Part shown: piece after piece, positions 3,641 through 62,418 of the stretch
Numbering within the stretch: position 1 is the stretch's first letter
Layout: every line of letters begins with the position of its first letter
Assembly (NCBI GenBank): GCA_019456305.1
Contig: VRUD01000013.1
Location: 1,594-65,593 of the forward strand
Direction: 5' to 3'
Length of the DNA stretch: 64,000 nt
DNA from: Cytophagales bacterium
GTDB taxonomy: Bacteria > Bacteroidota > Bacteroidia > Cytophagales > VRUD01
Position numbers and translations under genes: made by a program
Notes under the pieces: generated by a model
Told to the model about the DNA's origin: nothing
Seen by the model: only the letters and a program-made list of their open reading frames with translations
The model's database searches: none

Positions 3641-4183
3641 ATGGTAATGGAAAAGACCTTAACACAAAACAGGATTTATACCTATGATGATCTGAATTAT
3701 TTTCTACCCAATGGAAATTATGAGATCATTGATGGGAAAAAAGTAAATATGTCACCAACAGGATTTATACACGGAGAATTTGAATTTAACATTGCCCGGT
3801 TCTTAAAAGATCACCTTGAGAATAAAGGTTATGTTTCAGTTGGAGAGATTGGAATTGTCATAAGTAAAAAACCATTCAGGCTAAGAGCTGCCGATGTTGT
3901 ATATATTAGCAAAGAGACCTCTGCCAGTAAACCTGAAGGGATACTTGAAATTGCACCTGATCTGATCTTTGAAATTTTATCTAAAGATGATACCATACAA
4001 GATATGAATGATAAGATCAAAGATTATTTGTCAATAGGTGTTAAAAAGATTGTAGTGGTTGATCCTTTTACCAAATCTCTTTCAATTTATCATCAAAATA
4101 AAAAAGATATAAACTTTTACAATTTTGATCAGCAATTTGAGTTGATTGATGGGATAAAAGTAATTACGAATAAAATTATATGA
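3641..4183 (+). CDS. Uma2-family (DUF820) putative PD-(D/E)XK endonuclease
   Basis: The YEIIDGKKVNMSP...GEFEF...APDLIFEILSKDD pattern is typical of the Uma2 family. Confidence 0.75.
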   Translation: MVMEKTLTQNRIYTYDDLNYFLPNGNYEIIDGKKVNMSPTGFIHGEFEFNIARFLKDHLENKGYVSVGEIGIVISKKPFRLRAADVVYISKETSASKPEGILEIAPDLIFEILSKDDTIQDMNDKIKDYLSIGVKKIVVVDPFTKSLSIYHQNKKDINFYNFDQQFELIDGIKVITNKII

Positions 4184-4225: not shown

Positions 4226-6895
4226 CTATTCCCTAAAGTAAACTCGCTTTACTCTCTCACTCACATTGGTTAATATCTCATAAGGAATGGTGCCAATTGA
4301 ATCGGCAAGGTCAGTGATGGGCAGGCCTTTCCCGAAAAGGATCACTTCATCTCCTTCCTGAGCTTTGAACCCTGTTATATCTACCATACACATATCCATA
4401 CATACATCACCCATTACAGGTGCATAACTGCCATTGATCATAACTTTCCCTTTTCCGTTACCAAACCGCCTGTCATACCCATCGGAATAACCAGCGGCTA
4501 TTGTTGCAATTGCCATATTTCTATCTGCTCTTCTTGTTCTGCTACCCTGCCTTTGGTTAGACAGGTAACCGATCGTTTCGCCTTTTTTAATATGCCTGAT
4601 CTGTGAAATTACGGTCTTTAAGGTACCGACATTTTCTAACTCGGGCCAGTCCCCCCTAACAGCCCCCCTAAATCCCCCTGAATCGGTGAATGGGTGAATG
4701 GGTGAATCGGTGAATCGCTTCGTTTTCCCGCTCTCCGTTTCTCCGATTCCCCGTTTCTCCGATTCAGGGGAGTTGGAGGGGAGCTGGTAGAGGGGCTGGA
4801 CACCATAAAGCCCGATACCCAGTCTTACCATATCCATTTGTGCTTCAGGAAAACGGAGAATTCCCGCAGAATTTAAAATATGTTTTACAGCTATATATCC
4901 AATTCCCTTTTCGATTCTGGAAGTCAAAGTTTTAAATTTCTTTATTTGTGTCTTTGTAAACCCATCATGCTTATGCTGATCTGCTCCCGCTAAATGGGAG
5001 AATATACTAACTACTTTTATACTGGAATTGCTTTTAAGCATCTGAATAAGTTCATCAATATCAGTTTTATCAAAACCTAACCGATGCATGCCGGTATCTA
5101 ACTTTATGTGAATATTCAGTGAATCCTTGAAATCTGCTTGTATATCTTTTTTATCTATAAAATATATAAATGATTTTAAAATATTAAGACTGTATATTTC
5201 AGGTTCAAGGCTGTAATCAAGAATTTTTTTGTAAGTCTGCGGTGTGGGATTCATCACCATAATGGGCATTGTGATACCTTTTTCCCGTAATGCTACCCCT
5301 TCATCGGTATAAGCTACTGCCAGGGTTTCAACTACTTCGTATTGTAGCAGATTTGCAATTTCATAGCTTCCACTGCCGTATGAAAATGCCTTAACCATAA
5401 CCATGATCTTAGTTCCTGGATTGAGCGCTGAACGGAAAAAGTTCAGGTTATGAGCAAGCGCGTCTAAATTTATTTCCAGAACGGTACCATGTACCTTTTG
5501 CTCTAACAATGAAGTGATCTTTTCAAATTCAAAAACCCTGGCGCCTTTTACCAAAATACTCTGGTTTGTAAAATCATCCTTGTTAAATTTTTTCAAAAAA
5601 GACTCTGTGTCTTTATAGAATATAGTAGTGATGTGAGAAACTATATCTTTATTTCTTGAAATAACCTCTCCAATGCCGATTAACTTATTTACCTTTTTTT
5701 CTTTCAGGAGATCTCCTATATCAGCGTACAGTTCCTTTTCCTTTAAACCGGATTGCAGCACATCTGATAATATCAAAGTTTTACCAGGATGTTGATTTTG
5801 TTGAGCCAAAAAATCCAGCGCTAATCTAAGACCCGCCAGGTCATTATTGTAAGTATCATCAATGATCGAACAATTATTGATGCCTTCCTTGAGCTCCAAC
5901 CGCATAGCTACTGCGGTGAGATTTTGCATCCTTGTGATTGTATCCTTCAAGTCAATATTGAGATAAAGCAACAAAGCAATACAATGGATTGCATTTTCAA
6001 TAGAGGCATCATCATGAAAAGGAAAGTCAATTTCGGATTTCGGATTATTGATTGTGGATTTTAAATCCGAAATCCGAAATCCAAAATCCGCAATTTTAAA
6101 ATCTGAATCATCATTTTTCGACCACTTAACTGTTTTAATCCCTGTTATTTTTTGAAATGCGACTATCTCTTTATGTAATTCCTCATCGTCTTTACAATAA
6201 ATAAGCGCTTCTGAATTTTTGAACAACTTTAACTTTTCCCTGATCTTTTCAACTTTTGAACCAAAGCCTTCATCGTGAGCGGTACCTATATTTGTAAAAA
6301 TTCCAATAGTCGGACGAATGACCTTTTCCAATCGTTCCATCTCACCGGGTCTCGAAATTCCCGCTTCAAATATCCCGATCGTGTGATTATCATTGGTCTG
6401 CCAAACCGATAAAGGAACTCCTACCTGCGAATTGTAGCTCTTAGGGCTTTTCACCACAGTTTCATCAGGGCTTAGCAACTGTGATAACCACTCTTTAACG
6501 ATGGTTTTACCATTGCTGCCTGTTATGCCAATTACCGGTATATTAAATTGCGACCTGTGATGTGCAGCTAATGTCTGCAAGGCGGAGATACTGTTTTCTA
6601 CCTCTAAAATATTCGCTTCCGGCAAAAGTGTTGGCCAGTTCTCCCTCCCGAGTACTCGGGAGGAGTTAGAGGGGGGCTGCTCTTGCTCAATCACAAATTG
6701 CCTCACCCCTTTTGCATACAACTCTTCCAAAAAATGATGACCATTGTGCCTTTCTCCTTTTAGAGCAAAGAAAAGTGAAGAAGCAGGCGCAACTATTTTT
6801 CTGCTGTCTAATAATAAATGTTGAACAGGCAGGTCGTTAAAGAATTTTATCGTATTTCCTTTGATGATTTTTGCAGCTTTTTGGGAAGTGAGCAT
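4226..6895 (-). CDS. murF-alr: bifunctional UDP-MurNAc-tripeptide--D-Ala-D-Ala ligase (MurF) / alanine racemase (Alr) fusion
   Basis: The N-terminal half is Mur-ligase-like (GITGSNGKTIVKEW, DDTYNNDL). The C-terminal half is alanine-racemase-like (VMVKAFSYGSG with the PLP lysine context, GIGLYG, AGYSDGY). It contains three repeat-derived in-frame segments. Confidence 0.85.
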   Translation of the reverse strand: MLTSQKAAKIIKGNTIKFFNDLPVQHLLLDSRKIVAPASSLFFALKGERHNGHHFLEELYAKGVRQFVIEQEQPPSNSSRVLGRENWPTLLPEANILEVENSISALQTLAAHHRSQFNIPVIGITGSNGKTIVKEWLSQLLSPDETVVKSPKSYNSQVGVPLSVWQTNDNHTIGIFEAGISRPGEMERLEKVIRPTIGIFTNIGTAHDEGFGSKVEKIREKLKLFKNSEALIYCKDDEELHKEIVAFQKITGIKTVKWSKNDDSDFKIADFGFRISDLKSTINNPKSEIDFPFHDDASIENAIHCIALLLYLNIDLKDTITRMQNLTAVAMRLELKEGINNCSIIDDTYNNDLAGLRLALDFLAQQNQHPGKTLILSDVLQSGLKEKELYADIGDLLKEKKVNKLIGIGEVISRNKDIVSHITTIFYKDTESFLKKFNKDDFTNQSILVKGARVFEFEKITSLLEQKVHGTVLEINLDALAHNLNFFRSALNPGTKIMVMVKAFSYGSGSYEIANLLQYEVVETLAVAYTDEGVALREKGITMPIMVMNPTPQTYKKILDYSLEPEIYSLNILKSFIYFIDKKDIQADFKDSLNIHIKLDTGMHRLGFDKTDIDELIQMLKSNSSIKVVSIFSHLAGADQHKHDGFTKTQIKKFKTLTSRIEKGIGYIAVKHILNSAGILRFPEAQMDMVRLGIGLYGVQPLYQLPSNSPESEKRGIGETESGKTKRFTDSPIHPFTDSGGFRGAVRGDWPELENVGTLKTVISQIRHIKKGETIGYLSNQRQGSRTRRADRNMAIATIAAGYSDGYDRRFGNGKGKVMINGSYAPVMGDVCMDMCMVDITGFKAQEGDEVILFGKGLPITDLADSIGTIPYEILTNVSERVKRVYFRE

Positions 6896-7029: not shown

Positions 7030-7182
7030 TGAGTCCACTCTAAAAAGTCTTTTTTGCCACAAAAGCACAAAAACACTAAACCCCACTAAAAATTAACTAA
7101 TTGATTTTCAGGGTTTTGTGGGATTTAGTGCTTTGGTGTTTTAGTGGCATTTTTATTTTTTGGACTTATTAGAGTGGACTCA
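7030..7182 (+). mobile_element. 153-bp MITE-like palindromic element, copy 1
   Basis: It has 12-bp perfect terminal inverted repeats (tgagtccactct / agagtggactca) and full-length imperfect self-complementarity. Near-identical copies lie at 34326, 45053 and 55708, with a half copy at 52445. Confidence 0.7.
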
Positions 7183-10619: not shown

Positions 10620-10976
10620 ATGAAACCTATGACACCAAAAGAAGTAAGAGAAGGTGCAATCATGACCTTAGACAAAGGGGAAAACATTGTTGGAATGTGG
10701 GCGTCACCACCTATTCCTCAAACCGGTTTCTATAAGCTGCTGGCAAAACAAAAAAAAGACGGCACTATTGAATGGGCTCATTTAGTACAAAGGGCTGATG
10801 GGTCTAAAGAACTAATGTTTCGGGGAACGGCTAAATCAAAAAAAGAGCTCAACAAAGTGGTGGATTTAGCCAGCGCCCAACTTAGCAGGATTTTTGGCCC
10901 ATCTATAAAATTAAAAGCCGCTAAAGCCGATTTTTATTCTTTGGAAGGCCAGAAATTTGATGATACGGTGAATTAA
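10620..10976 (+). CDS. hypothetical protein (118 aa)
   Basis: The ORF is clean, but no motif is recognised. Confidence 0.4.
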   Translation: MKPMTPKEVREGAIMTLDKGENIVGMWASPPIPQTGFYKLLAKQKKDGTIEWAHLVQRADGSKELMFRGTAKSKKELNKVVDLASAQLSRIFGPSIKLKAAKADFYSLEGQKFDDTVN

Positions 10977-10977
10977 A

Positions 10978-11092
10978 GTACGATTTACGAAGTACGAATG
11001 ACGAATATCGGTTTCTTCATTCGTACTTCGTAAATCGTACTTCGTAAATCGTACTTCGTACTTCGTACTTCGTACTTCGTACTTCGTACTTA
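10978..11092. repeat. 24-bp perfect-stem hairpin plus a ttcgtac heptamer tract filling the whole intergenic gap
   Basis: gtacgatttacgaagtacgaatga (10978-11001) pairs with tcattcgtacttcgtaaatcgtac (11017-11040). Five tandem ttcgtac units follow at 11055-11089. It belongs to the same tacgaa/ttcgta family as 62226-62270. Confidence 0.8.
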
Positions 11093-19497: not shown

Positions 19498-21186
19498 TCA
19501 AATGTCCGCCTCAAAATGCAGATAAAATCCATGTTCCCCACGACCATTCACACTGTATTCAATCCTAAACACTGTATCATAAAAAGTCACAATATCCAGC
19601 CCAATTCCTCCACCTTGAAGAAAACTATTGGTTAATGGATTGTTTTTTTTTGTAAAACTTTTATTTACCACATATCCTGCGTCTGTATAGACCTTTAAAT
19701 AAAGCGCAAAAGGAATGGTTTGAAACTGCCGGATCGGGATCAAAGTTTTAAGTTCTTTTGTAGTTGAAAATAGCTGCTTTTTCAGGGTAACTTTTCCCAG
19801 CAAATAGTGCTGTCCGTCAATCACATAAAATTCATAGCCCCTTACAAAGTCCTGGTAATAGCCAAATGCCATGGAATTAAACCAGGGCTGTATTTTGGGG
19901 ATGGAATTTTTTGTTTTGATCAACCAAGCCAGGTAGGTCTTTTTCCCAACATCCCAAAATTTTGAATAACCGGCTGTAAATTCCAATTGATTGATGTCAT
20001 TGAATATGCCTGTTCCGGGCTTTTTTACTTCAAACATAAAATAACTTCCTTTAAGAGGATAGTATTGTATATCTCTGAAATCTCTTTTATAGGCATAGCT
20101 GACCTGGAAATATTTTTGTTCATGATCCCCCTTATTATTAAAATAATTCGGATTCAGCGCTATTACTGTGTCAGCAATGGTATTGTAGTTGAATTTTATA
20201 TCAAGAGAATGGCTTATGTGTATTGCTTTTCTTCTAAAAAGCTTCACCCCGGCATTGAACCTTTCTCTGATGAATTCAGGGTCCTCATAAAAAACAAGCT
20301 TATTTTCGAAGGCTTTGACCGTATCTCCTGTCTTATAAGCAATCTCCCTGTTTCTTGAATAAGATATTGAAGGCCTCATGCCTACAATTTGTTTTTTGTC
20401 AATATAGGGGATGTTGTAATAAAGTTCATATTTTCTTGTATAGCCTGATTGTAAAACAACCTTTAGCCGTTCATTTTTACCCCTGCAGTTTTCCTGGTAA
20501 AATCTGATCCCGTATTCAATCCTGTCAAGGTCTTTATTTTGCTCGTCCCACCAAACATTGAAATTCCTGTCTGCCAATTCTAAGATAGGGATAGGGAAGG
20601 TGTACCAGCGTTCTTTTACAATAATAATTATATCTATGAATTCATTATTTTCTGATCTTCCCTCATTCCCCTGCCCGCCTGCCTGCGCCTTTGGGGCTCC
20701 GGCAGGCAGGCGTTTTACGTCTGAATATACCAAACGCTCTGCGCTTAGCTCTACTGTTACAAACAAGCCAGTATTAAAAATATTATTCCGGTTAATTTCC
20801 AATAGGTGGTCTATAGATCCTTCAGTCAAAGTATCACCAACACCAAAATTCAATTCTCTAAGGATTATAAGATCTTTTGTTCTTGTATTTCCCAGTGTAA
20901 TAATTTCCTTGATGATGATAGATTTTTTGTCAAATTGTAGAGACGTTGGGTAGAGACGACCAAATTGGGCGTCTCTACCCAACGTCTCTACAATTTGACT
21001 TGTATCCTGATCCGAATGACTTGGTAATGCGTTGATATTATAGATAAGAACATAGCTTTGCAAATTGATTAAAAAAAATGCCACTAAATCACGAAAACAC
21101 AAAATCCCACAAAAAAAAGGTTTATAAAATAATTTAGAGGGATTTTGTGTTTTAGTCCCGCCAAAGGCGGGATTGTGGCAAAACAT
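19498..21186 (-). CDS. Omp85/BamA-family outer-membrane protein (POTRA plus surface-antigen barrel); start uncertain
   Basis: It has a POTRA-like segment (IIKEIITLGNTRTKDLIILRELNFGVGDTL) and a C-terminal beta-barrel ending in an aromatic-rich strand. All in-frame ATG starts lie inside repeat elements. Confidence 0.7.
   Translation of the reverse strand: MFCHNPAFGGTKTQNPSKLFYKPFFCGILCFRDLVAFFLINLQSYVLIYNINALPSHSDQDTSQIVETLGRDAQFGRLYPTSLQFDKKSIIIKEIITLGNTRTKDLIILRELNFGVGDTLTEGSIDHLLEINRNNIFNTGLFVTVELSAERLVYSDVKRLPAGAPKAQAGGQGNEGRSENNEFIDIIIIVKERWYTFPIPILELADRNFNVWWDEQNKDLDRIEYGIRFYQENCRGKNERLKVVLQSGYTRKYELYYNIPYIDKKQIVGMRPSISYSRNREIAYKTGDTVKAFENKLVFYEDPEFIRERFNAGVKLFRRKAIHISHSLDIKFNYNTIADTVIALNPNYFNNKGDHEQKYFQVSYAYKRDFRDIQYYPLKGSYFMFEVKKPGTGIFNDINQLEFTAGYSKFWDVGKKTYLAWLIKTKNSIPKIQPWFNSMAFGYYQDFVRGYEFYVIDGQHYLLGKVTLKKQLFSTTKELKTLIPIRQFQTIPFALYLKVYTDAGYVVNKSFTKKNNPLTNSFLQGGGIGLDIVTFYDTVFRIEYSVNGRGEHGFYLHFEADI
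21079..21180. repeat. short MITE-arm-derived hairpin element carrying an embedded cccgccaaaggcggg hairpin
   Basis: tgccactaaatc...cacaaaatcccac pairs with gggattttgtgttttagt, and the ends are tgccac / gtggca. It shares arm sequence with the 153-bp element. Confidence 0.6.
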
Positions 21187-21336
21187 TGAAATTCCGATAC
21201 GTTTAAAATAGAAAAAAATAATGATACAACATTTTGTTTCTTTTGGAAATGTCATAACTTTGTCTAAATGTTGAATTAAACTGATGCCAATATACGTATG
21301 TATAATGCTAATCCCGCCTTTGGCGGGACTAATGAT

Positions 21337-34325: not shown

Positions 34326-34478
34326 TGAGTCCACTCTTAAAAGTCTTTTTTGCCACAAAAGCACAAAAACACTAAATCCCACTAAAAATTAACTAATTGA
34401 TTTTCAGGGTTTTGTGGGATTTAGTGCTTTGGTGATTTGGTGGCATTTTTATTTTTTGGACTTATTAGAGTGGACTCA
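34326..34478 (+). mobile_element. 153-bp MITE-like element, copy 2
   Basis: It has the same terminal inverted repeats and internal sequence as copy 1. Confidence 0.7.
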
Positions 34479-45052: not shown

Positions 45053-45205
45053 TGAGTCCACTCTAAAAAGTCTTTTTTGCCACAAAAGCACAAAAACACA
45101 AAATCCCACTAAAAATTAACTAATTGATTTTCAGGGTTTTGTGGGATTTAGTGCTTTGGTGTTTTAGTGGCATTTTTATTTTTTGGACTTATTAGAGTGG
45201 ACTCA
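45053..45205 (+). mobile_element. 153-bp MITE-like element, copy 3
   Basis: It has the same terminal inverted repeats. The track start of the downstream ORF at 45167 lies inside it. Confidence 0.7.
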
Positions 45206-48235: not shown

Positions 48236-48351
48236 TTTGGTATTTATTTAAAGTTGTTTAAAATTCTTTGTTTGTCCTCATTCTCTTTGTTGTTCTTGTG
48301 ATACAGCTCTACAAAAATTTATTATTCCTGGTTTAGTTGTTTTAGTGTGAC

Positions 48352-48820
48352 GGGTTCCGAATGTGGATTTCCGTGATCTCTTATTGTGAGCCCGACTTGG
48401 AGTCGGACTCCCATGGGGTTCGGACTCCCACGCTATCGGAGTCCCACTCCGAGTGGGGCTCCGAATAATGAGGATTTCCGTGGTCTCTTATTGTGAGCCC
48501 GACCGGGAGTCGGACTCCCATATTCCCCAGTACGGTCGTTCCTCCCTACGGGGTAAACCTCACTATGGGGCAGGCTGGGAGTCGGACTCCCACGCTATCG
48601 GAGTCCCGTTCGTTCCCCAGTACGGTCGTTCCTCCCTACAGGGAATTAACGATGCCATCGCTTTATTTAGTTAACGACCAATTAATTATACTGCTGTTGT
48701 TTTAAGCAATGATGTTGTTAAATATATTGGTTTTTAGCGATGGCATCGTTTGTCCGAACCCCATGGGAGTCGGACTCCCATGGGGTTCGGACTCCCACGC
48801 TATCGGAGTCCCACTCCGAG
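48352..48820. repeat. roughly 470-bp pile-up of at least four short repeat families
   Basis: There are two ~57-bp direct units (ccgaat..ggatttccgtg.tctcttattgtgagcccgac..ggagtcggactcccat). ggactcccacgctatcggagtccc occurs three times. The 29-nt ccccagtacggtcgttcctccctacgggg occurs twice. A 33-nt perfect odd palindrome lies at 48756-48788. The inverted repeat aacgatgccatcgct / agcgatggcatcgtt is also present. Confidence 0.85.
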
Positions 48821-51800
48821 CTACATCAACCCTCTCACTCTCGCCAGACTCAGTCCGGTTACTTCTGCTATAAATTGGATATCTGACCCTTTTGCCAGCA
48901 TTTTCCCTGTTATCTCATACCTTTCATCCTTCCTCGCCTTCTTCACGATCGTATTCTCCACCCTCTTAGTGAGCATTTTTACGCTAAAGTCTCGCTGTGT
49001 TTTTACCTTCAGCCTGGCGGTGGCGCGGGCGATGCGCAGGACGAAGCCCTCAAACGGAATGAGCAATGCGCCTATGGACACATTAAGCACGATCTTCAGG
49101 ATAACGATACCGGTGATGTAGGAGGCAAGCGCCTCCTCGGTGTAGTTTTGCGCGTACTCCAGCACTAAGAAGATGAACATATAAGCAAGTACTTTTATGA
49201 GCTTCTGGCGTTTTTCTCCTGTGCCGCGCAGCATTAGTATAATACAGAACAAGCCGAACAACACCCCGCCCTGCAGCGCATAAAACCACCACGTTAACCA
49301 CCAGGGCGGCAGGATGCGAAAGCGGTACTCCCCTATAGCACTCTCATGCCCATACACATTCTTTGCCTTTACCCTGAAGGTGTATTTGCCGGGGTCTAAG
49401 TTGGTGAAGTTGGTTTTGGTTTCTGTGCTCCACGGGCTCCAGTCTTTGGTAGTACCCTCCAGGAAAAAGCTGTACTGCGTTTTCTCTTCCTTTACATAAA
49501 AAGGCGCAGCAAAGCGGAAAGTGAAATTATTCATGTCATAAGGGAGTACGGGCGCCATTGCTGCCGGCTGTTTTTGTACTACACGCGGCGCTGCCGTGCC
49601 GGTATTATAACCAAAGCCGCCATACAGCACCGTATCTCTTATCACACCCGGTTTCCCCCCTTTGGTGGGAGGGCGATGTCCAGTGGACATTGAGCCAGCC
49701 TGTGGGAGGGGGGCTCTCACTTCGGTGACCATGCAGGGGTAGGGATGCTCATAATTCAATACAATCGAAGGATCATACCGCAGTAGCCCGTCATCTCCGC
49801 CTATCCATATTAACCCATCCTGCGCAGGGTAAATGACGCGTGGAACCCCTATATTCATGCTCAAAAAAGGGATGGTATCCACCATGTATGCACCTTGCGG
49901 GGTTAATTTGCAGTGAACGACCTTACTTTTACTTGACATCCACACATCCCCGTTGGGCGCCTGGAAAAAGCTGTATACCGGCCTTCCCGTATCTGCAAAC
50001 ATTGCTCCAAACTGGGTGCAGGGTATGATCCTGTAGCGCTTCCTGTCAGGGGTAGAGACACGGTGCACCGTGTCTCTACCCCCTCCTGGGGCTGCTTCGT
50101 ACAACCCCTTATCAGTACACACCATCACCTCCCAGGTTCCATCAGGAGATTTCCAGGGGAAAACCCCGGTATATCCTTCCGGTACTTCCCTGCCTGCCTG
50201 ATAATGCTCATGCCCGGTCACATTTCCATGCTCATCCACGAGTATCCGGTGCACTCCCTCATAGATTGTGCCTGCCCACACCTCGGTAAGGGTTGTATCG
50301 GAAGGCAGGGGACGGGTAACTATATCATATATTTCTCTTATCTCCTTATTCGAAAGGAGTTGTTTTGACTCCCAGCCTGGGTGACCCTGCCGTTGAGCTA
50401 CTCTGTATAAACCATCCCTGCCGCCTGTAAATATAGCTCCCCTGTGGCTGATGGCAAGGCCTTGACTTTGTGCTTTCAGTATTTTCTCAACAATTACATC
50501 ACTTTCAACTGATTTTCCGACTGCCGACTGTTTACCCCGTAGGGAGAAACGACCGTACTGGGGCCGACTGCCGACTTGTTCACGGGCGGGTTGTATGGAA
50601 TATAAGCCGACATTTCCTGCAAGGATAAACCTGCCGGTTGGAGGATGGTACCGGATGTTCCGACACTGACTTTCAATGCCCGGTACTTTTTGAAACAGGC
50701 TGCCTGTTGCTGCGGAACCGGTCATTTTCGCTTTGCTTTCCCTGCCGCCAGCGCTGTAATAACAGCCCTGTGCTGTGGCAAGCCACACAGCAGCAGCCGG
50801 GGTATTTTCATTCATGATGGCAATGGATTGAATTTTTCCATCTATCCCATCATTGTATCCATACCAGCCAACGGGTGAGGGAAACTCTAACCGGCTGATA
50901 CCGTTGTTAGTGCACAGCCATACAGCGCCCGGGGGCGCTGCTTCCATAGCGCCTGATGCAGCGGGAAGATACAACTGGTTCCATATAAGGTTATCACTCA
51001 GCCCCTCTTTTTTACTTAAATGGAACAGCGGGGTCAAAGCCATGCCGCCTGCCCCGTTGGATCCTTCTTCCATCCAACCTGGGCCGGTCAGCTCCAAACC
51101 AACTATTCCGTCATTTCGTGTTCCTGCCATGTACAGGGGAGGGATGCCGCTGAAAGAGAGCAATGCCGCGTTATAGGGTAATGCAGAAGGGTTGTAGCGC
51201 ACGTATTGTCCGTTCCTGATGAGCAGCCCTCCCGGACCCGCCTGCCATAGGCCTTTGGCCTGTCCGCCAGACAGGCGGGCGGGCAGGTTTTGAAAATCCG
51301 GCAGCTCCGTATCAGCGCCCGTCACCCCGGGGTAAACCTGCCCTGCCGCTTTGTCGTACCGGTAAAAGCCACCGGGCTTCACATACAAAAGCAAGCCGGT
51401 ATAGTTACCGGCAGCCATCGCTTCCCCGGTTGCGTCCGGATAAACCTGCTGTACGGGATGAAGGGCATAAATGCGTCCTTCTTTTACAATGGTTTTGGTA
51501 CCGGGAAGCAGCTCCCATGCTGTTCCGCCTGCCCCGTCCGTAAGATTAGGATCAAAGGTAAGGATGCCCAATCCATCATGCTGGATATAAAGCGATGCCT
51601 CTGTATCTTTCCGGTTTCCCCCGGCATTGCCGGTTGCAGGGGCAGTTCCTCCGGCTTCGACCAGGGCGGGTGCATAAAATGAACTGAAAAACAGGCCGGA
51701 AGTGGTGGTATTTAACTTTTCCGTGTTTTCCTTTTTGGCGCTGCCGGCCTGCCCCGTACCGGAGGCCGGGGGTATTTGTTCCTGCCTGCCTGTTATTTCA

Positions 51801-52354
51801 TTGTAAACCGAGTCAGGCAGGAAAACCTCCATCTTTCCTGTTTCTGGCTGATAGAGGAACAGATGGGAGTATGCATTAAATACAATACCAAACCGGGTGG
51901 CATGGGTCTCCCATACACTGGAGAATTGCCCCGTACCGGAGGCCGGGGGTATTTTGTCTGTCAGCGACACATATTCCAGCGCTCCGGTAATGGTACTTGC
52001 ATTTAATATTTCGTACTTCCCTGTTGGGGCGATATATCCGAACTCACCGCTGCCACCCGCATAAATAATGCCTGAAGCGGTATCTAAGTCCATGCTGACT
52101 ATATAATTCCCGGCTCCCACCGGCACATGGCTCCAGGAGGCGCCATCGTAGATGAATATTTCATCTGCGGTTCCAAAATATGCCCTTCCGGCTTTGTCTG
52201 TTGCGGCACAGAATACCTGGCTGTGTGCTTTGTATTGTTTTGGAGTAAAATTGGTGATGGCCGGTCTATGGGGCAGTTGGGCAGTTGCTTCAAGCGTGCA
52301 TTGAAGGAGCAACACAGCAGTTGCGATAAATCGGATGTAGTTTGATGTTTTCAT
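48821..52354 (-). CDS. periplasmic sensor: two-component-regulator propeller repeats, Y_Y_Y domain and TM segments, with a short atypical C-terminal tail and no kinase domain
   Basis: It has a signal peptide and beta-propeller repeats. A Y_Y_Y-type segment (YSFFLEGTTKDWSPWS...GKYTFRVKAKNVYGHES) is followed by PPWWLTWWFYAL. The tail ends ...GSDIQFIAEVTGLSLARVRGLM. It is GC-rich relative to its neighbours. Confidence 0.75.
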   Translation of the reverse strand: MKTSNYIRFIATAVLLLQCTLEATAQLPHRPAITNFTPKQYKAHSQVFCAATDKAGRAYFGTADEIFIYDGASWSHVPVGAGNYIVSMDLDTASGIIYAGGSGEFGYIAPTGKYEILNASTITGALEYVSLTDKIPPASGTGQFSSVWETHATRFGIVFNAYSHLFLYQPETGKMEVFLPDSVYNEITGRQEQIPPASGTGQAGSAKKENTEKLNTTTSGLFFSSFYAPALVEAGGTAPATGNAGGNRKDTEASLYIQHDGLGILTFDPNLTDGAGGTAWELLPGTKTIVKEGRIYALHPVQQVYPDATGEAMAAGNYTGLLLYVKPGGFYRYDKAAGQVYPGVTGADTELPDFQNLPARLSGGQAKGLWQAGPGGLLIRNGQYVRYNPSALPYNAALLSFSGIPPLYMAGTRNDGIVGLELTGPGWMEEGSNGAGGMALTPLFHLSKKEGLSDNLIWNQLYLPAASGAMEAAPPGAVWLCTNNGISRLEFPSPVGWYGYNDGIDGKIQSIAIMNENTPAAAVWLATAQGCYYSAGGRESKAKMTGSAATGSLFQKVPGIESQCRNIRYHPPTGRFILAGNVGLYSIQPAREQVGSRPQYGRFSLRGKQSAVGKSVESDVIVEKILKAQSQGLAISHRGAIFTGGRDGLYRVAQRQGHPGWESKQLLSNKEIREIYDIVTRPLPSDTTLTEVWAGTIYEGVHRILVDEHGNVTGHEHYQAGREVPEGYTGVFPWKSPDGTWEVMVCTDKGLYEAAPGGGRDTVHRVSTPDRKRYRIIPCTQFGAMFADTGRPVYSFFQAPNGDVWMSSKSKVVHCKLTPQGAYMVDTIPFLSMNIGVPRVIYPAQDGLIWIGGDDGLLRYDPSIVLNYEHPYPCMVTEVRAPLPQAGSMSTGHRPPTKGGKPGVIRDTVLYGGFGYNTGTAAPRVVQKQPAAMAPVLPYDMNNFTFRFAAPFYVKEEKTQYSFFLEGTTKDWSPWSTETKTNFTNLDPGKYTFRVKAKNVYGHESAIGEYRFRILPPWWLTWWFYALQGGVLFGLFCIILMLRGTGEKRQKLIKVLAYMFIFLVLEYAQNYTEEALASYITGIVILKIVLNVSIGALLIPFEGFVLRIARATARLKVKTQRDFSVKMLTKRVENTIVKKARKDERYEITGKMLAKGSDIQFIAEVTGLSLARVRGLM

Positions 52355-52444: not shown

Positions 52445-52508
52445 TGAGTCCACTCTAATAAGTCTTTTTTGCCACAAAAGCACAAAAACACAAAATCCCA
52501 CTAAAAAG
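52445..52508 (+). mobile_element. left half of the 153-bp MITE-like element (truncated copy 4)
   Basis: tgagtccactctaataagtcttttttgccacaaaagcacaaaaacacaaaatcccactaaaaag abuts a different palindromic element. Confidence 0.6.
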
Positions 52509-52510
52509 AA

Positions 52511-52602
52511 TTGTCATTGCGAGCGCAGCGAAGCAATCCATTCATAGAAAGTAGTACAATTAAACAGATTGCTTCGGTCGCTGCGCTCCCTCGCAATGAC
52601 AG
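52511..52602. repeat. imperfect inverted repeat (gtcattgcgag...cgcagcg...aagcaatc family)
   Basis: The left arm is 52511-52538 and the right arm is 52567-52602. The arms differ by small indels. Confidence 0.65.
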
Positions 52603-52653
52603 TTTTGTGTTATTATTTTCTTTTTGTTCGTAAGATCATTTCGCAATCCTTCT

Positions 52654-54732: not shown

Positions 54733-55653
54733 ATGAAATCTGTGGTTAAAAAACGTATCCTCGTTGGTATTATCGGAGCCGCTCTGATAATTTTCTGCAT
54801 TTGCTTCAGTGCATGGACCTATTTTGCTTTGTTCTTCCTGATATGTCTTTTCAGCCAGTTAGAATTTTACAAAAATGTGGCTGCGGGTCGTATTTGTAAT
54901 CCGGCTCTATATTTAGGGCTCATCTGCGGGCTAACTTTATTCACATCAACTTTCTTAATAGAAAAAGAAATTATTAGCCAAAACTATTATTATCTTTTAT
55001 TCCCATTTTTAAGTTTAATTTTTCTTTTTGAACTCTTTAAACCGGCATCCAGTATCCAGTCAGAGCGAAGCGGAGATCCAGATCTACCAGGGCATCCAGC
55101 ATCCAGCTTCACCAACATTGCTTTTACTTTTTTAGGAATAATCTACATTGCCCTCCCACTTGCACTGTTAAACATTGCAGCCTTTTCAACAGAACATTCT
55201 GCTATCCAACATCTAATATCCAGTATCCGGCATCCAGCATCCAGCATCCAGTATTATAGTTACCAGGTCATTTTAGGGATTTTACTCATCGTATGGGCTA
55301 ATGATACACTGGCATATTTTGTAGGGATCAATTTTGGCCGAACAAAGCTTTTTCAGCGCATCTCACCGAAAAAAACCTGGGAAGGAACCATCGGGGGTGG
55401 TGTTGCTTCGCTCATCACTGCCTTGATTTTATCTTTTTATTTCAAAGACCTGCTGTTGTGGCAATGGATGACTTTATCTTTGATAATAATCATATCATCT
55501 ACATTAGGCGACCTTGTGGAATCATTATTCAAACGCAGCCTTAACATAAAAGATTCGGCAACAACAATTCCCGGCCACGGAGGATTTCTTGACAGGTTTG
55601 ACGGGCTGTTCCTGGCAGCGCCTTTTGTGACGGCATTTTTAAAATTTTTGTAA
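54733..55653 (+). CDS. cdsA: phosphatidate cytidylyltransferase
   Basis: It has the signature region SPKKTWEGTIGG...GDLVESLFKRSLNIKDSATTIPGHGGFLDRFDG. Two catccag-repeat-encoded segments interrupt it. Confidence 0.85.
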   Translation: MKSVVKKRILVGIIGAALIIFCICFSAWTYFALFFLICLFSQLEFYKNVAAGRICNPALYLGLICGLTLFTSTFLIEKEIISQNYYYLLFPFLSLIFLFELFKPASSIQSERSGDPDLPGHPASSFTNIAFTFLGIIYIALPLALLNIAAFSTEHSAIQHLISSIRHPASSIQYYSYQVILGILLIVWANDTLAYFVGINFGRTKLFQRISPKKTWEGTIGGGVASLITALILSFYFKDLLLWQWMTLSLIIIISSTLGDLVESLFKRSLNIKDSATTIPGHGGFLDRFDGLFLAAPFVTAFLKFL

Positions 55654-55707: not shown

Positions 55708-55860
55708 TGAGTCCACTCTAAAAAGTCCAAAAAATAAAAATGCCACTAAATCACCAAAGCACTAAATCCCACAAAACACTGAAAATCAATTAGTTAATTT
55801 ATAGTGGGATTTTGTGTTTTTGTGCTTTTGTGGCAAAAAAGACTTTTTAGAGTGGACTCA
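55708..55860 (-). mobile_element. 153-bp MITE-like element, copy 5 (inverted orientation)
   Basis: It is the reverse complement of copies 1-3, with a few substitutions. Confidence 0.7.
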
Positions 55861-55914: not shown

Positions 55915-58900
55915 ATGATCTTTAAAAAAATTATATTGTCATTCAGCTTTGCTTTTGCATTTGCTTTTCTTCTCCACCTTTCCTCCTGGATTTTTTTCTC
56001 CCCCTTTGTGGGAGATTCAGAGGGGTCCTGGGTTGGGGGTGAAGTTTTTGCACAAACACTCAAATTCTCTGATGAGCCGGAGCAGTTCATAACAGACATC
56101 AACCAGATGATGGAAGCCACTACCTATGAAATTGCAATCCAGGCAGCAGTAAATTTCGATTCTGCATGGGTTTCACTCACCGGTGGTCAAAAGACAGTAC
56201 TGATCAGCATCGCTCAAAAGATGGCAAAAAGAAGACTCAAGCCAATACCAGACTTTCAGAATTTTTTTAATACAATTTCTTATGCTGTTCAAAATGACTC
56301 CATAGACTCACAAATACTTGATACATTTTTAACCGTAATGTTTAAAGTGATAGACAGACCTGAAAATAGCAATGCCTTGATCAGTAAATTTCTTGCAACT
56401 ACCAGGCTGTTTTTTGAAAAAAAAGCCCTGTACGACTCAAACTATAACAGCGTGTTTGTGATTGGAGGAACCTATGCTTTTGATTATATAGAACCGGAAG
56501 AAGAAAAAACTATCTTTGATGAATATGATCCCGAATACCCGGAAGCACAAGAAGAAGAAGCAGAAGATGATGACTGGGGTTGGGAGGATGAAGGTTGGGG
56601 TGATGAGGATGAAGATGATTTTACCACGAGCAAACAAAGGATCGAAGCTTTGTTAGGAGATGAAGTTACAGAAGATGATGCTACTGAGCAAACCCCAATA
56701 CAAGGCCCTGTAATAATTTTTAAAAACGCCAACATTGCCTTACGAACAAATTATGGCTCCAATCAAATTCAGGGCACAAATGGCACCTTCATGTTTTATA
56801 GCAACATTTTTACCGGGGATAGCGGCAAATTTGACTGGAGTAAAGTGGGAATTTCACCAGCAGCGCTTTATTGTGAATTTAAAGGATATAATTTTAACGT
56901 AAAAAGCCCTACCTTAAAAGTAGACTCAGTTACCTTACACTATCCTGAAGTGGTTGGCTACCCCGTTGAAGGAATATTTGAATTTCAAAGTAAAAAATAT
57001 TCAAATCCATTGAAAGCCCAATACCCCAAATTTAAGTCTTATTCTAACGATATTAAAATCAAAAACTTTGGGAAAAATATGATATATAAAGGAGGAATGG
57101 CCCTCATCTATAAAGGTGGATTAGCCCTTGCCGGCAACAGGATGAACAGTTTATCAGTGACCGGAGGAAACTGCGAAATGAACTTTCTCAGAAAAAACAA
57201 ATTAATGTTTAGGTTGTTAGCGAAAAGATTTGAATTAGGCGACTCTTTAATTGCCTCTAAAAATGCGTATTTTGTCCTTTATCAATATGAAGATTCGTTG
57301 ATGGACGGCAACAGAGTAGCATTTCAGCGAAAAGACTCAATCGTTCACCCAAAAGTTAAGTTGAAATACAATAAAAATACTGCCATGTTAAAGTTGGTAA
57401 CAGGTGGAAGTACATCAAAGCATACAGCATTCTCCGATTCCTATCATAATATTGATATCAGAGCAGAATTTCTTCACTGGGATTTGAAAACTTCACAAGT
57501 AAATTTTTCTATAATTACTGCAAAACACAAAGTACCGGCATTTTTTGAGTCAAGAGAATATTATGATCCTGTCAGGTACAAACAAATGGGGGGTATTTTA
57601 AGCTTTCATCCACTACAAATGGTGGTAATGTACGGACGCTTAAAAGGGAAAAAACAATTTTATGTTGATCAAATAGCAAGAGATTATAAGAAAAATGCCA
57701 ACACGATTAAATCTACCTGTGTATCTTTGGACAGGCAGGGGTTTATAGATTATAATGCTGAAACGGGTTTTATTAAATTAAAACCTAAGGGTATACATTA
57801 TGTGTATGCCAGCATGGGAAGAGCCGATTATGATAATATGCTGATAAGGTCTTTAAGCGCAGCAGGGAAAAATGCTACTTTAGACATTTCTAACAATGAG
57901 CTCACCGTAAGAGGCATTCGCAAGTTCTATTTAAGTGATTCGATGAGGGTGTTTGTGCTTCCGCAAGGTAACCAGATCAAAATATTAAAAGACCGCAATC
58001 TATTATTCAATGGCATGTTGAGAGCTGGTAATATGTTGTTTTACGGGCAGGATTTCAAGTTTGATTATGATGGTTTTTTTGTAGTTTTAAAACAGGTTGA
58101 TTCACTGAAATTCAGATTGGATAAAGTAGGAGTACTTGATAACCAGATGGTCTTTGAGGAGGGTATTTTATATATTAATAAGCCAAATAACAGATCGGGA
58201 AGAAAAAGCTTTCCGGATTATCCTAAGCTTGCCGCCCCACAGGGAGGAAAGGTCTATTTTGACCGGGATAAAGTGCTCAATCATGCTTATGATAAAAGTA
58301 TGTATTTTGAAATACCTGCTTTTGATCTTGATAGCCTCAACAGCTATAATCCTGCCTCCTTTTCATTTTATGGCACTTTTTATTCGGGCGGCATTTTCCC
58401 ACCCTTCCAGGAAAGATTGCGAATTATGCCGGATTACTCACTTGGATTTACGCACAAGGTCCCTTATGGTGGGTATAATCTTTACGGAAAGGATGACGCC
58501 CGGTTTTACGACATGCTTACCTTAAACAACGAGGGCCTGAGAGGACCGGGAGAGCTCAAATATTTAATGGCTACCTTAAAATCAGAGGATTTTGTTTTTT
58601 ATTTAGATTCTACTTTAGCTATAGCCACAGCAGGGTATATACAAAAAGGTAATTATAACGAAGCATCCTGCCCTCAGACAACCTATGATCGCTGCCTGAT
58701 GAAATGGCTGCCTAAGCTCGGTATGTATTTAAGCAATACCGATATACAAGCCCCGATCCTGCTTTATGAAGGAGACGCTACATTAGATGGAACCACGCTA
58801 TTAACTGCAACCGGGTTATATGGAATTGGCAAAGTCTCTACAAGTGATGCAGCAACAATATCTGATAAGTTTCATTTTAGAGAAAATGACTTTAGCGCCA

Positions 58901-61568: not shown

Positions 61569-62216
61569 ATGACAATCTGTTTAATCATATTTTGTACCCT
61601 TTTTGCTTATCTCATCGGTTCACTACCTACGTCAGTGTGGCTCGGACAGGCATACTATGGAATTGATGTCAGGGAATACGGGAGCGGCAATGCCGGTGCA
61701 ACCAATACTTTCAGAATTCTGGGAAAGCGGGCAGGCGTCATTGTGTTGGCTGTTGATATTATGAAAGGATGGTCGGCTACTTCGTTTGCTACTTTCCTTT
61801 TAGCGTTGAATTTGATCCCTTATGATGACCTGGTCATTTATAAAATAATTTTTGGCACTGCCGCTGTTTTAGGACATATTTTTCCGGTTTATGTAAAATT
61901 CAGAGGAGGCAAAGGCATTGCCACGCTAATAGCCGTGATCTTCTCTATCAATATTGAAGCAGCCCTGGCTTGTATGATCATTTTTTTTATTGTTCTTTTC
62001 ATTTCAAAATATGTCTCCCTGGGCTCATTGTCAGCAGCCCTGGCATTTCCCCTCCTGCTTCTTCTTCCAAGGTTTTATCCTGATGAGCCTTTTATCATCA
62101 CTTTCGGATTTGCCTTGTTTGCCATCGTTGTGCTTACCCACCAAAAAAACATTATCCGGCTTATCAACGGACAGGAAAGTAAGGCGAATATAAGGTTGAG
62201 GAAAAATAAAACCTGA
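61569..62216 (+). CDS. plsY: glycerol-3-phosphate acyltransferase PlsY
   Basis: GSGNAGATNTFRILGK and KGGKGIAT are PlsY signatures in a multi-TM protein. I prefer the ATG at MTICLIIF over the track TTG start at 61533. Confidence 0.85.
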   Translation: MTICLIIFCTLFAYLIGSLPTSVWLGQAYYGIDVREYGSGNAGATNTFRILGKRAGVIVLAVDIMKGWSATSFATFLLALNLIPYDDLVIYKIIFGTAAVLGHIFPVYVKFRGGKGIATLIAVIFSINIEAALACMIIFFIVLFISKYVSLGSLSAALAFPLLLLLPRFYPDEPFIITFGFALFAIVVLTHQKNIIRLINGQESKANIRLRKNKT

Positions 62217-62225
62217 ATTAAAAAT

Positions 62226-62270
62226 GACGAATTACGAATGACGAAGTACGAATTCGTCATTCGTAATTCG
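62226..62270 (+). terminator. 19-bp perfect-stem hairpin 10 nt downstream of plsY (tacgaa/ttcgta repeat family)
   Basis: Positions 62226-62244 pair perfectly with 62252-62270 around a 7-nt loop. No U-tract follows. Confidence 0.45.
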
Positions 62271-62418
62271 TACTTCGTAATTTACAATGACCGGTAAAAG
62301 CATCCCTATACAAATATTTTATTTCTTATTATTTACAGCTATACAGCTAATTTTACTAAGAAACGCTGTGCTTTTTAAAAAATTTATATCATTTTTTTTG
62401 CATTTAAAAAAAATGCCC

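Follow-up and report, generated by a model that had tools for sequence, protein, structure and literature searches.

A dispersed, hairpin-forming repeat lies in frame within the murF-alr gene of a Cytophagales bacterium

A 64,000-nucleotide stretch of the genome of a Cytophagales bacterium (contig VRUD01000013.1, positions 1,594 to 65,593; hereafter the window) contains murF-alr, a fusion gene whose product is a bifunctional UDP-MurNAc-tripeptide:D-Ala-D-Ala ligase/alanine racemase (NCBIfam NF008897, 1121 bits). An earlier note on this DNA had pointed to a compound palindromic segment lying in frame inside the gene, and that observation was confirmed. We find that the segment is probably one copy of a dispersed, hairpin-forming repeat family of non-coding origin, which would be translated as a disordered linker loop and spread by copy-and-paste of hairpin DNA. 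The element represents a new modular family in a Cytophagales metagenome-assembled genome (MAG) and is unrelated to the Rickettsia palindromic elements (RPEs). The sequence and coordinates first given for the segment were reproduced, the true variable block being slightly larger, and the 889-residue open reading frame (ORF) runs across it uninterrupted and encodes the peptide that had been quoted.

That the segment is an insertion, as the earlier note proposed, was upheld by orthologue alignment. Nearly all of the best 120 orthologues found are 800-850 residues long (about 820), compared with 889 in the window, and the segment is absent from 11 of 11 aligned orthologues, in which about 8 residues separate GIGLYGV(E/Q) from LE(T/N)VGTLKT. 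The same interval holds 52 residues in the window and 13 in the nearest relative (P0001, on contig L002), whose DNA is ~95% identical to the window across murF-alr. At the element site, L002 carries 39 nt against 156 nt in the window, so that the two differ by 117 nt (39 codons). The 39 nt of L002 constitute a mini-hairpin, CCAGCTCCCCC...GGGCGGAGGCTGG, which is one copy of a unit present three times on each side in the window. Because this outer module is present in both, the two genomes differ by gain or loss of the interior. Contig L001, considered as independent confirmation, was rejected, as it belongs to the same assembly as the window and is 100% identical.

The element is not unique in its genome. 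BLAST returned only the self-match within the 64-kb window, which suggested uniqueness until a peptide search overturned it. A word-indexed protein search with the 52-residue insert gave no match, and an idealised DSPIHRFT array gave one weak match only, the word index apparently being insensitive to sequences of this kind. An exhaustive phmmer search of the 53-residue peptide against 1.84 billion representative proteins produced 13 hits, ten of which share a peptide of 35-40 residues (62-85% identity; approximate consensus SPPLTPSPPESEKRGIGETERRKTKRFTDSPIHPFTDSVRNSGGG) within unrelated proteins: PorX, MutL, an NAD-dependent epimerase, an inositol monophosphatase, an aspartate kinase, a biotin carboxylase, a TPR protein, a SAM hydrolase, a PAS/SpoIIE protein and an ABC ATPase. 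Six of these carriers bear accession numbers that belong to a single NCBI MAG ("Cytophagales bacterium", locus tags FVQ77_), to which the CdsA, NadE and MurF-Alr fragment of the window also belong.

Seven further core copies were located in the European Nucleotide Archive (ENA) assembly of the window, all on the coding strand and in frame, giving eight core copies in seven genes of the same assembly (murF-alr, PorX, epimerase, inositol monophosphatase, aspartate kinase with two copies, biotin carboxylase and SAM hydrolase). All eight are 95 nt long, without insertions or deletions, and pairwise identities are 87-94% (mean 90.8%), the non-repetitive loop GAGAGnnGGAAAACGAAGC included; 29 base pairs are conserved across the copies. 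One core copy recurs in identical form in a second sample (L124 and L125), and related copies occur in another ENA project (L160), in Joint Genome Institute (JGI) data and in another NCBI Bacteroidota MAG. Phage and plasmid collections yielded no carriers, their sole match being one Burkholderia array.

Dissection of the element (Table 1) showed that it is a mosaic of nested modules and not a single unit, with a fixed 95-nt core inside one to three outer hairpin modules. Tandem Repeats Finder (TRF) and a repeat finder identified 4.9 copies of the unit TGAATSGG at 4679-4717 and 4.2 copies of TCTCCGAT, an imperfect complement of that array, at 4732-4765; outer C-run/G-run units of 10-12 nt lie at 4650-4684 and 4766-4800. 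The perfect 12-nt arms described previously were found at 4675-4686 and 4759-4770, and the longest inverted pair extends over 50 nt with 74% complementarity. As single-stranded DNA, positions 4640-4810 fold into a nested imperfect palindrome of -45.2 kcal/mol (z = -6.3), and none of 200 dinucleotide shuffles (-25 +/- 3.2 kcal/mol) was as stable. The GC fraction of the element is 0.55-0.59, versus 0.39 for the window.

Outside the core, the eight copies differ by modules. The left flank is usually (C)AGCCCCCCTCTAACTCCA, and the right flank takes one of two forms, GATTCAGGGGGATTTAGGGGGGCTG in the window and PorX copies or GATTCGGTAAGGAATAGTGGCGGGGGG(ATTTAGGGGGGGCT) in the remainder; the GGATTTAGGGGGGCTG module of the 3′ outer side also flanks core copies in L126, L127 and L128. 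The outer module recurs with other interiors, accompanied by CTCCCGAGTACTCGGGAG and GAGAACTGGCCAACACTTT at window positions 6620-6680, and by CCCCCCAAAGGGGGG plus the same two modules in an acyl-CoA synthetase gene (L129 5530-5690, in frame). The appearance of modules in these other combinations shows a mosaic build. Beyond the element site, four additional hairpin-type indels or replacements separate the window and L002 versions of murF-alr over 2.67 kb, and in L002 only, an 84-nt hairpin is nested in the loop of a heptamer hairpin that both genomes share (window 6030-6094). The varied combinations of modules, together with this nesting, suggest that hairpins have repeatedly entered the apex of earlier hairpins.

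Spread of the family would then proceed by copy-and-paste acting on hairpin DNA, with a preference for the tips of hairpins already in place. One candidate route is template switching or gene conversion at stalled forks, and another is a trans-acting HUH-type enzyme; cut-and-paste transposition with terminal inverted repeats and target-site duplications is not the route proposed. That alternative, in which the element would be a classical MITE (a miniature inverted-repeat transposable element), derived from an insertion sequence by deletion, moved in trans by the transposase of that insertion sequence and leaving target-site duplications, is unlikely, though several properties fit it: a size of ~100-165 nt, a palindromic fold, dispersed copies, an empty/filled polymorphism between close relatives, and a possible AAT duplication flanking a perfect 39-nt hairpin in murF-alr that is private to L002. 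Across the eight copies, however, the ends are variable and modular and do not form fixed inverted repeats. No duplication or shared direct repeat is evident at any of the eight, although boundaries are ambiguous where host sequence has been replaced, as at two murF-alr sites. Neither the window nor the DNA flanking the other copies was found to contain a transposase. Variable ends, the lack of a transposase in that DNA and replaced host sequence argue against a classical MITE and favor hairpin-dependent copying or a single-strand transposase.

Local growth of the element, in which simple repeats of 8 nt and 11 nt would expand through strand slippage and then undergo inverted duplication with no transfer from another locus, is a decidedly poor account of the core, although it accommodates some of the same observations. 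The arms are arrays of 8-nt units, arrays of 7-8 nt and array hairpins built of differing units abound in the genome, unequal arm expansion is visible at 10976-11091, and the outer module, with three copies in the window and one in L002, is mirrored in both arms. Slippage may explain the copy number of the outer module. For the core, a local origin is largely refuted by eight copies in unrelated genes that share one unit count, one loop and one length at the identities given above. The common length and loop exclude independent slippage, and the unit count, identical in all eight copies, sets the core apart from an array that slips.

The coding strand of the element is open in two of three frames and the opposite strand in none of three. 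An exact complement of the 3′ arm, (SATTCACC)n, would be (GGTGAATS)n, which contains TGA in every 24 nt; the actual 5′ arm is GGAGAAAC / GGGGAATC, with 3 T in 51 nt. Being almost free of T, this arm has no stop codons, and the only bases that follow a T in the other arm are T and C. When a perfectly complementary 5′ arm was substituted in silico, a stop (TGA) appeared at codon 715. This stop-free asymmetry accounts for much of the shortfall in arm complementarity, and since it is common to eight of eight copies, it belongs to the family as a whole and does not reflect repair at this locus. The periodic mismatches may also protect the long palindrome from cleavage, an idea that has its basis in SbcCD of E. 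coli.

Mapping onto structure, as the earlier note had suggested, placed the insert in the linker between the two alanine racemase domains. Pfam matches comprise Mur_ligase_M/C, Ala_racemase_N (residues 475-701) and Ala_racemase_C (residues 758-886); the insert lies between the last two, where the alignment with PDB 4y2w also breaks. AlphaFold2 (AF2) predicts coil over residues 688-755, with predicted local distance difference test (pLDDT) scores of 24-35, and two other inserts, at window 6620-6680 (residues 74-81) and 6030-6094 (residues 271-285), score below 50. Disorder-promoting residues make up 77% of the insert peptide. The biotin carboxylase copy is a clean 42-residue insertion between residues 278 and 279 of PDB 6ybp_G. 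Linker position, predicted coil and the 6ybp_G site all correspond to surface placement away from the fold core, as in RPEs. No family was found for the insert in Pfam, NCBIfam (E<=1) or PHROGs, and Rfam gave chance-level miRNA-like hits only (21-32 bits against gathering scores of 58-90). The TIGRFAM/NCBIfam library contains RPE domain models, none of which was matched by the 53-residue insert, the whole protein or two other carriers in an NCBIfam scan (E<=1). The parallel with RPEs drawn in the earlier note therefore holds for behavior, that is for in-frame copies in unrelated genes, and fails at the level of sequence.

On the most probable account, a repeat family of a Cytophagales lineage now fills a linker exposed at the surface of MurF-Alr and would be translated as part of the enzyme. 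Its survival in an essential gene would be explained by three circumstances: filled and empty states differ in length by a multiple of three, one strand of the family sequence is without stops, and the landing site is an interdomain linker. The 52-residue hydrophilic peptide would be retained in MurF-Alr and is presumably harmless there. It is very improbable that the segment is instead missing from the mature protein through removal from the mRNA, ribosomal bypassing or intein splicing. The mRNA hairpin is strong, and bypassing has precedents in T4 gene 60 and in the mitochondrial "byp" elements of yeast, which are GC-rich mobile hairpins skipped by the ribosome. Frame and absence of stops are nevertheless kept in eight of eight copies, a stop-free build on one strand would be needless if the segment were skipped, and searches of Rfam, Pfam and NCBIfam revealed no intein or intron splicing motif, covariance-model match, RNA family or other protein family. 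Just as improbable is a selected peptide module (a flexible linker, localization signal or interaction motif) recruited into several proteins. The same peptide does occur in about ten proteins and sits in a linker here, but the DNA is palindromic and the peptide a by-product of its 8-nt periodicity. Its hosts have unrelated functions, and the peptide itself, which is predicted to lack order, matches no known domain and is absent from the 95%-identical relative L002.

Several points weigh against a translated, hairpin-copied repeat as the full explanation. The change relative to L002 may have been a gain or an internal deletion, and at the element site the native loop is replaced and not cleanly interrupted. 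No transposase, terminal inverted repeats or target-site duplication were found in the window and the flanks of the other copies, and no intergenic copy was present in the ~130 kb of this genome that was read. The seven further copies came from a one-frame peptide search and so provide no measure of in-frame or coding bias. No compensatory change was seen across the eight copies, which are too similar for informative covariation. A T-poor arm also occurs in apparently intergenic hairpins of other organisms, so the asymmetry is no proof of local selection. Finally, the AF2 model is of modest quality (mean pLDDT 68.5, 12-sequence alignment).

Table 1. Positions of murF-alr, its compound element and other in-frame repeats in the window
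Feature	Position	Strand	Description	Evidence
murF-alr fusion gene	4226..6895	(-)	889-residue ORF, host of the element
Whole compound element	4640..4795	(-)	156 nt, 52 codons (PLYQLPSNSPESEKRGIGETESGKTKRFTDSPIHPFTDSGGFRGAVRGDWPE)	DNA alignment with L002, protein alignment, fold
Family-conserved 95-nt core	4680..4774	(-)	AACTCCCCTGAATCGG(AGAAACGGGGAATCGGAGAAACGGAGAG)-loop CGGGAAAACGAAGC-(GATTCACCGATTCACCCATTCACCCATTCACC)GATTC
5′ arm, coding strand	4732..4770	(-)	Octamers GAATCGGA / GAAACGGG, GGAGAAAC type; purine-rich	TRF, repeat finder, composition
3′ arm, coding strand	4679..4717	(-)	(SATTCACC) x ~5, read as FTDSPIHPFTDS
Outer module, coding-strand 5′ side	4771..4800	(-)	~3 tandem copies of CCAGCTCCCCT (M1-type, related to AGCCCCCCTCTAACTCC); one in L002
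Outer module, coding-strand 3′ side	4640..4679	(-)	AGGGGGATTT / AGGGGGGCTGTT / AGGGGGGACTGG, mirrors the 5′ outer module
Lineage-specific 21-nt insert (LSNQRQG)	4544..4564	(-)	Small hairpin potential; shared with L002, with several substitutions between them
Third in-frame hairpin	6030..6094	(-)	Heptamer arrays (GGATTTC)n / (CCGAAAT)n, read as ADFGFRISDLKSTINNPKSEI; common to L002
Second mosaic element, MurF N-terminal domain	6620..6680	(-)	Modules AGCCCCCCTCTAACTCC + CTCCCGAGTACTCGGGAG + GAGAACTGGCCAACACTTT; 61 nt replace a native 28 nt kept in L002

Genes that carry the element are affected in public annotation. In the NCBI annotation, every element-bearing gene checked is called truncated, with a start 12-35 residues upstream of the element. 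Thus murF-alr itself appears as a 203-residue "hypothetical protein" (MBW8049550.1, P0141) where the ENA call is full-length (P0140), and P0122, P0125, P0126 and P0127 are truncated relative to the full-length ORFs of the ENA calls P0136-P0139. The repeats seem to break automated gene calling and, as the truncation of every carrier gene checked indicates, silently degrade annotation and orthology calls in MAGs.

The surroundings of murF-alr also differ between the two relatives. A Uma2-family endonuclease gene (window 3641-4183) lies between the thioredoxin gene and murF-alr and is absent in L002, where the thioredoxin gene is directly downstream of murF-alr. The window holds, in addition, toxin-antitoxin-like and restriction-modification-like genes (zeta toxin, DUF433/DUF5615-PIN, RhuM and N6_N4 methylase).

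Other repeats are plentiful in the window. A second hairpin family of ~95 nt with 8-nt sub-repeats, TGCCACAAAAGCACAAAAACACTAAATCCCAC ... GTGGGATTTAGTGCTTTGGTG..GTGGCA, is present in 5-6 copies in 64 kb, all intergenic (7055-7150, 34351-34445, 45078-45172, 55741-55835 in reverse, 21091-21156 and ~52470-52500); its A/T-rich flanks, AAAAAGTCTTTTTTGCCAC / GTGGCATTTTTATTTTTTGGACTT, are conserved, and the family is MITE- or terminator-like. Intergenic hairpins at 10976-11091 and 62215-62282 have heptamer arms of AAGTACG / AATGACG / AATTACG versus TTCGTAC; at the former, one arm has ~10 units and the other ~4, and similar ACGAATT-type arrays occur in an Acidobacteriota genome (L038). A hairpin at 52511-52610, GTCATTGCGAGCGCAGCGAAGCAATCC...GATTGCTTCGGTCGCTGCGCTCCCTCGCAATGAC, has clear relatives in Desulfonatronovibrio and Thermodesulfovibrionales contigs (L013, L031) and is one more small cross-phylum repeat. 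An intergenic GC-rich block at 48350-48830, with interleaved direct and inverted repeats (GGAGTCGGACTCCCATGGGGTTCGGACTCCCACGCTATCGGAGTCCCACTCCGAG x3) and a perfect palindrome with 20-nt arms at 48752-48792, adjoins an unusually GC-rich Y_Y_Y-domain gene (48821-52354).

Repeats were also observed within other ORFs. The cdsA gene (54733-55653), for phosphatidate cytidylyltransferase, contains in-frame (GCATCCA)n at 55044-55110 and 55203-55254, read as PASSIQ / HPASS, and a CdsA Pfam match of 300 residues against a 264-position profile suggests ~37 extra residues. An Omp85/POTRA ORF (19498-21255, minus strand) has an in-frame GC-rich hairpin at 20656-20721, CGCCTGCCTGC...GCAGGCAGGCG, with the peptide RLPAGAPKAQAGGQG; its 5′ region (20929-20999), probably upstream of the true start, holds a near-perfect palindrome with 35-nt arms and internal GTAGAGACG repeats. 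In an ORF of 1821 residues (55915-61380), a heptamer array of TTCCATC / CCATTTT at 60196-60285 is broken by a mini-hairpin, CCCCGACAGAGTCGGGG, and looks like a tandem array into which a small hairpin was inserted.

Arrays of the octamer that forms the 3′ arm were found in many other genomes. One genome per species was scanned for GATTCACCSATTCACCSATTC, with counts that are lower bounds, and (SATTCACC)n was found at no fewer than 120 loci, in at least 53 assemblies and at least 10 phyla among the matches listed (Nitrospirota, Acidobacteriota, Desulfobacterota, Bacteroidota, Gemmatimonadota, Planctomycetota, Myxococcota, Chloroflexota, Deinococcota and Pseudomonadota). By our own estimate, a random 21-mer would be matched about once in 596 Gb, a baseline that refers to random 21-mers and not to other octamer arrays. 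Period-7 and period-8 arrays dominate these loci, and the window units AAATCCG, AATTACG/AAGTACG and AACTGTC were matched. Among the matches listed, 38 of 136 arrays fall within ORFs that continue for 60 or more codons to either side, and the reading is DSPIH[RP]FT in every case. On our reading of the flanking peptides, hosts include murF in a Bacteroidales MAG (at another site), ferrochelatase-like genes (hemH) in two Nitrospirota MAGs (Nitrospiraceae and Thermodesulfovibrionales), and genes resembling lpxK, P-type ATPase genes, rimO/miaB and dusB.

Three Nitrospirota loci (two Nitrospirae, one Thermodesulfovibrionales) resemble the window core in its two arms and loop region, with 78-83% identity over ~85 nt, and two of the three are within ORFs. 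The strict loop pattern had no match in JGI metagenomes; a looser two-arm pattern retrieved 30 more JGI metagenome loci, all from other organisms and none of the Cytophagales family. Across Nitrospirota-type genomes, the octamer element occupies the same protein site in L003 and L140/L149 (P-type ATPase) and in L009 and L058 (ferrochelatase-like). The states of these orthologues differ, some having the array only and others the array plus an GGAGAAAG-type arm, which recalls the difference between the window and L002.

On this evidence we tentatively raise the possibility, itself rather doubtful, that "coding-competent" array hairpins of short units form an undescribed class spanning several phyla, with the element as its member in Bacteroidota. 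In that case a common generator that spreads horizontally, be it an enzyme or a mobile template, would write the same units into housekeeping genes across bacteria with the stop-free asymmetry built in. Such a class, if real, would bear on the long-open origin of repeats of the STRR (short tandemly repeated repetitive) type, and the recurrence of the octamer inside ORFs across phyla may make the origin of STRR-like repeats testable.

Irrespective of the wider class, the murF-alr element extends a behavior that has been tied to one genus. According to the title of Ogata et al. 2002 (cited in PMC10969869), in-frame "protein-coding palindromes" were unique to Rickettsia. The same behavior is now seen in an unrelated environmental Cytophagales genome, by way of a different modular element built of 8-nt units. 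With at least three such insertions, and with five hairpin indels separating it from a 95%-identical relative, a single essential gene offers a natural system for measuring the rate at which such DNA enters and leaves coding sequence and for learning which protein sites tolerate it.

A literature search identified no paper with these unit or peptide sequences, and comparison with known systems reveals partial likenesses. PARCEL repeats are similarly coding DNA with dyad symmetry and a punctate distribution across distant taxa, but they are 25-residue tandem domains that form whole surface or membrane ORFs, not single insertions into enzymes. Correia and ERIC elements, Anabaena MITEs and the Coxiella QMITE (PMC10969869, PMC5896051) are small non-autonomous palindromes that are sometimes fused in frame; they possess terminal inverted repeats and parent insertion sequences, make target duplications and only exceptionally insert internally and in frame, whereas no such ends were found for the present element and all copies seen are internal and in frame. 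BIME/REP mosaics and REPINs (PMC3116915, PMC3733652) resemble it in having short hairpin modules in variable mosaics, presumably handled as single-stranded hairpins. Those repeats are extragenic, RAYT-linked and marked by GTAG/CGTC tags, features not shared here: inspection of the alignment at copy ends revealed no such tag, and no Y1 transposase occurs in the ~130 kb read.

Closer in unit structure are the 5-11-nt simple-sequence repeats, cyanobacterial STRR heptamers and TAACTGA repeats (Mrazek et al. 2007, MacGregor 2015; PMC4679880). As presented in PMC4679880, heptamer arrays are patchy in Cyanobacteria, Beggiatoaceae and Bacteroidota and have no known mechanism, repeats with a unit length that is a multiple of three are likeliest in coding regions, and TAACTGA repeats are mostly intergenic. 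Common to these and to the element are arrays of 7-8-nt units, few units at many loci per genome, sporadic cross-phylum spread that includes Bacteroidota, and an unknown generator. The difference is that here two different unit arrays pair into a hairpin whose unit count is fixed and whose loop is conserved, giving one 95-nt repeat inside ORFs.

The nearest counterparts in behavior are RPE-1 to RPE-10 of Rickettsia, the in-frame palindromic repeats of Ogata et al. (2000, 2002), of which PMC10969869 and PMC3184786 give summaries. Both are palindromic repeats of ~100-150 nt with a stable stem-loop, dispersed in multiple copies, in frame, among unrelated housekeeping genes and translated (in the present case presumably) as extra surface segments, and in neither has a transposase been identified or are clear terminal inverted repeats or target duplications evident. 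They differ in their hosts, Rickettsia being an obligate intracellular alphaproteobacterium and the present genome an apparently free-living environmental Cytophagales MAG of a different phylum, and in their construction, as the element described here has arms of 8-nt tandem units and a nested mosaic build with interchangeable outer modules.

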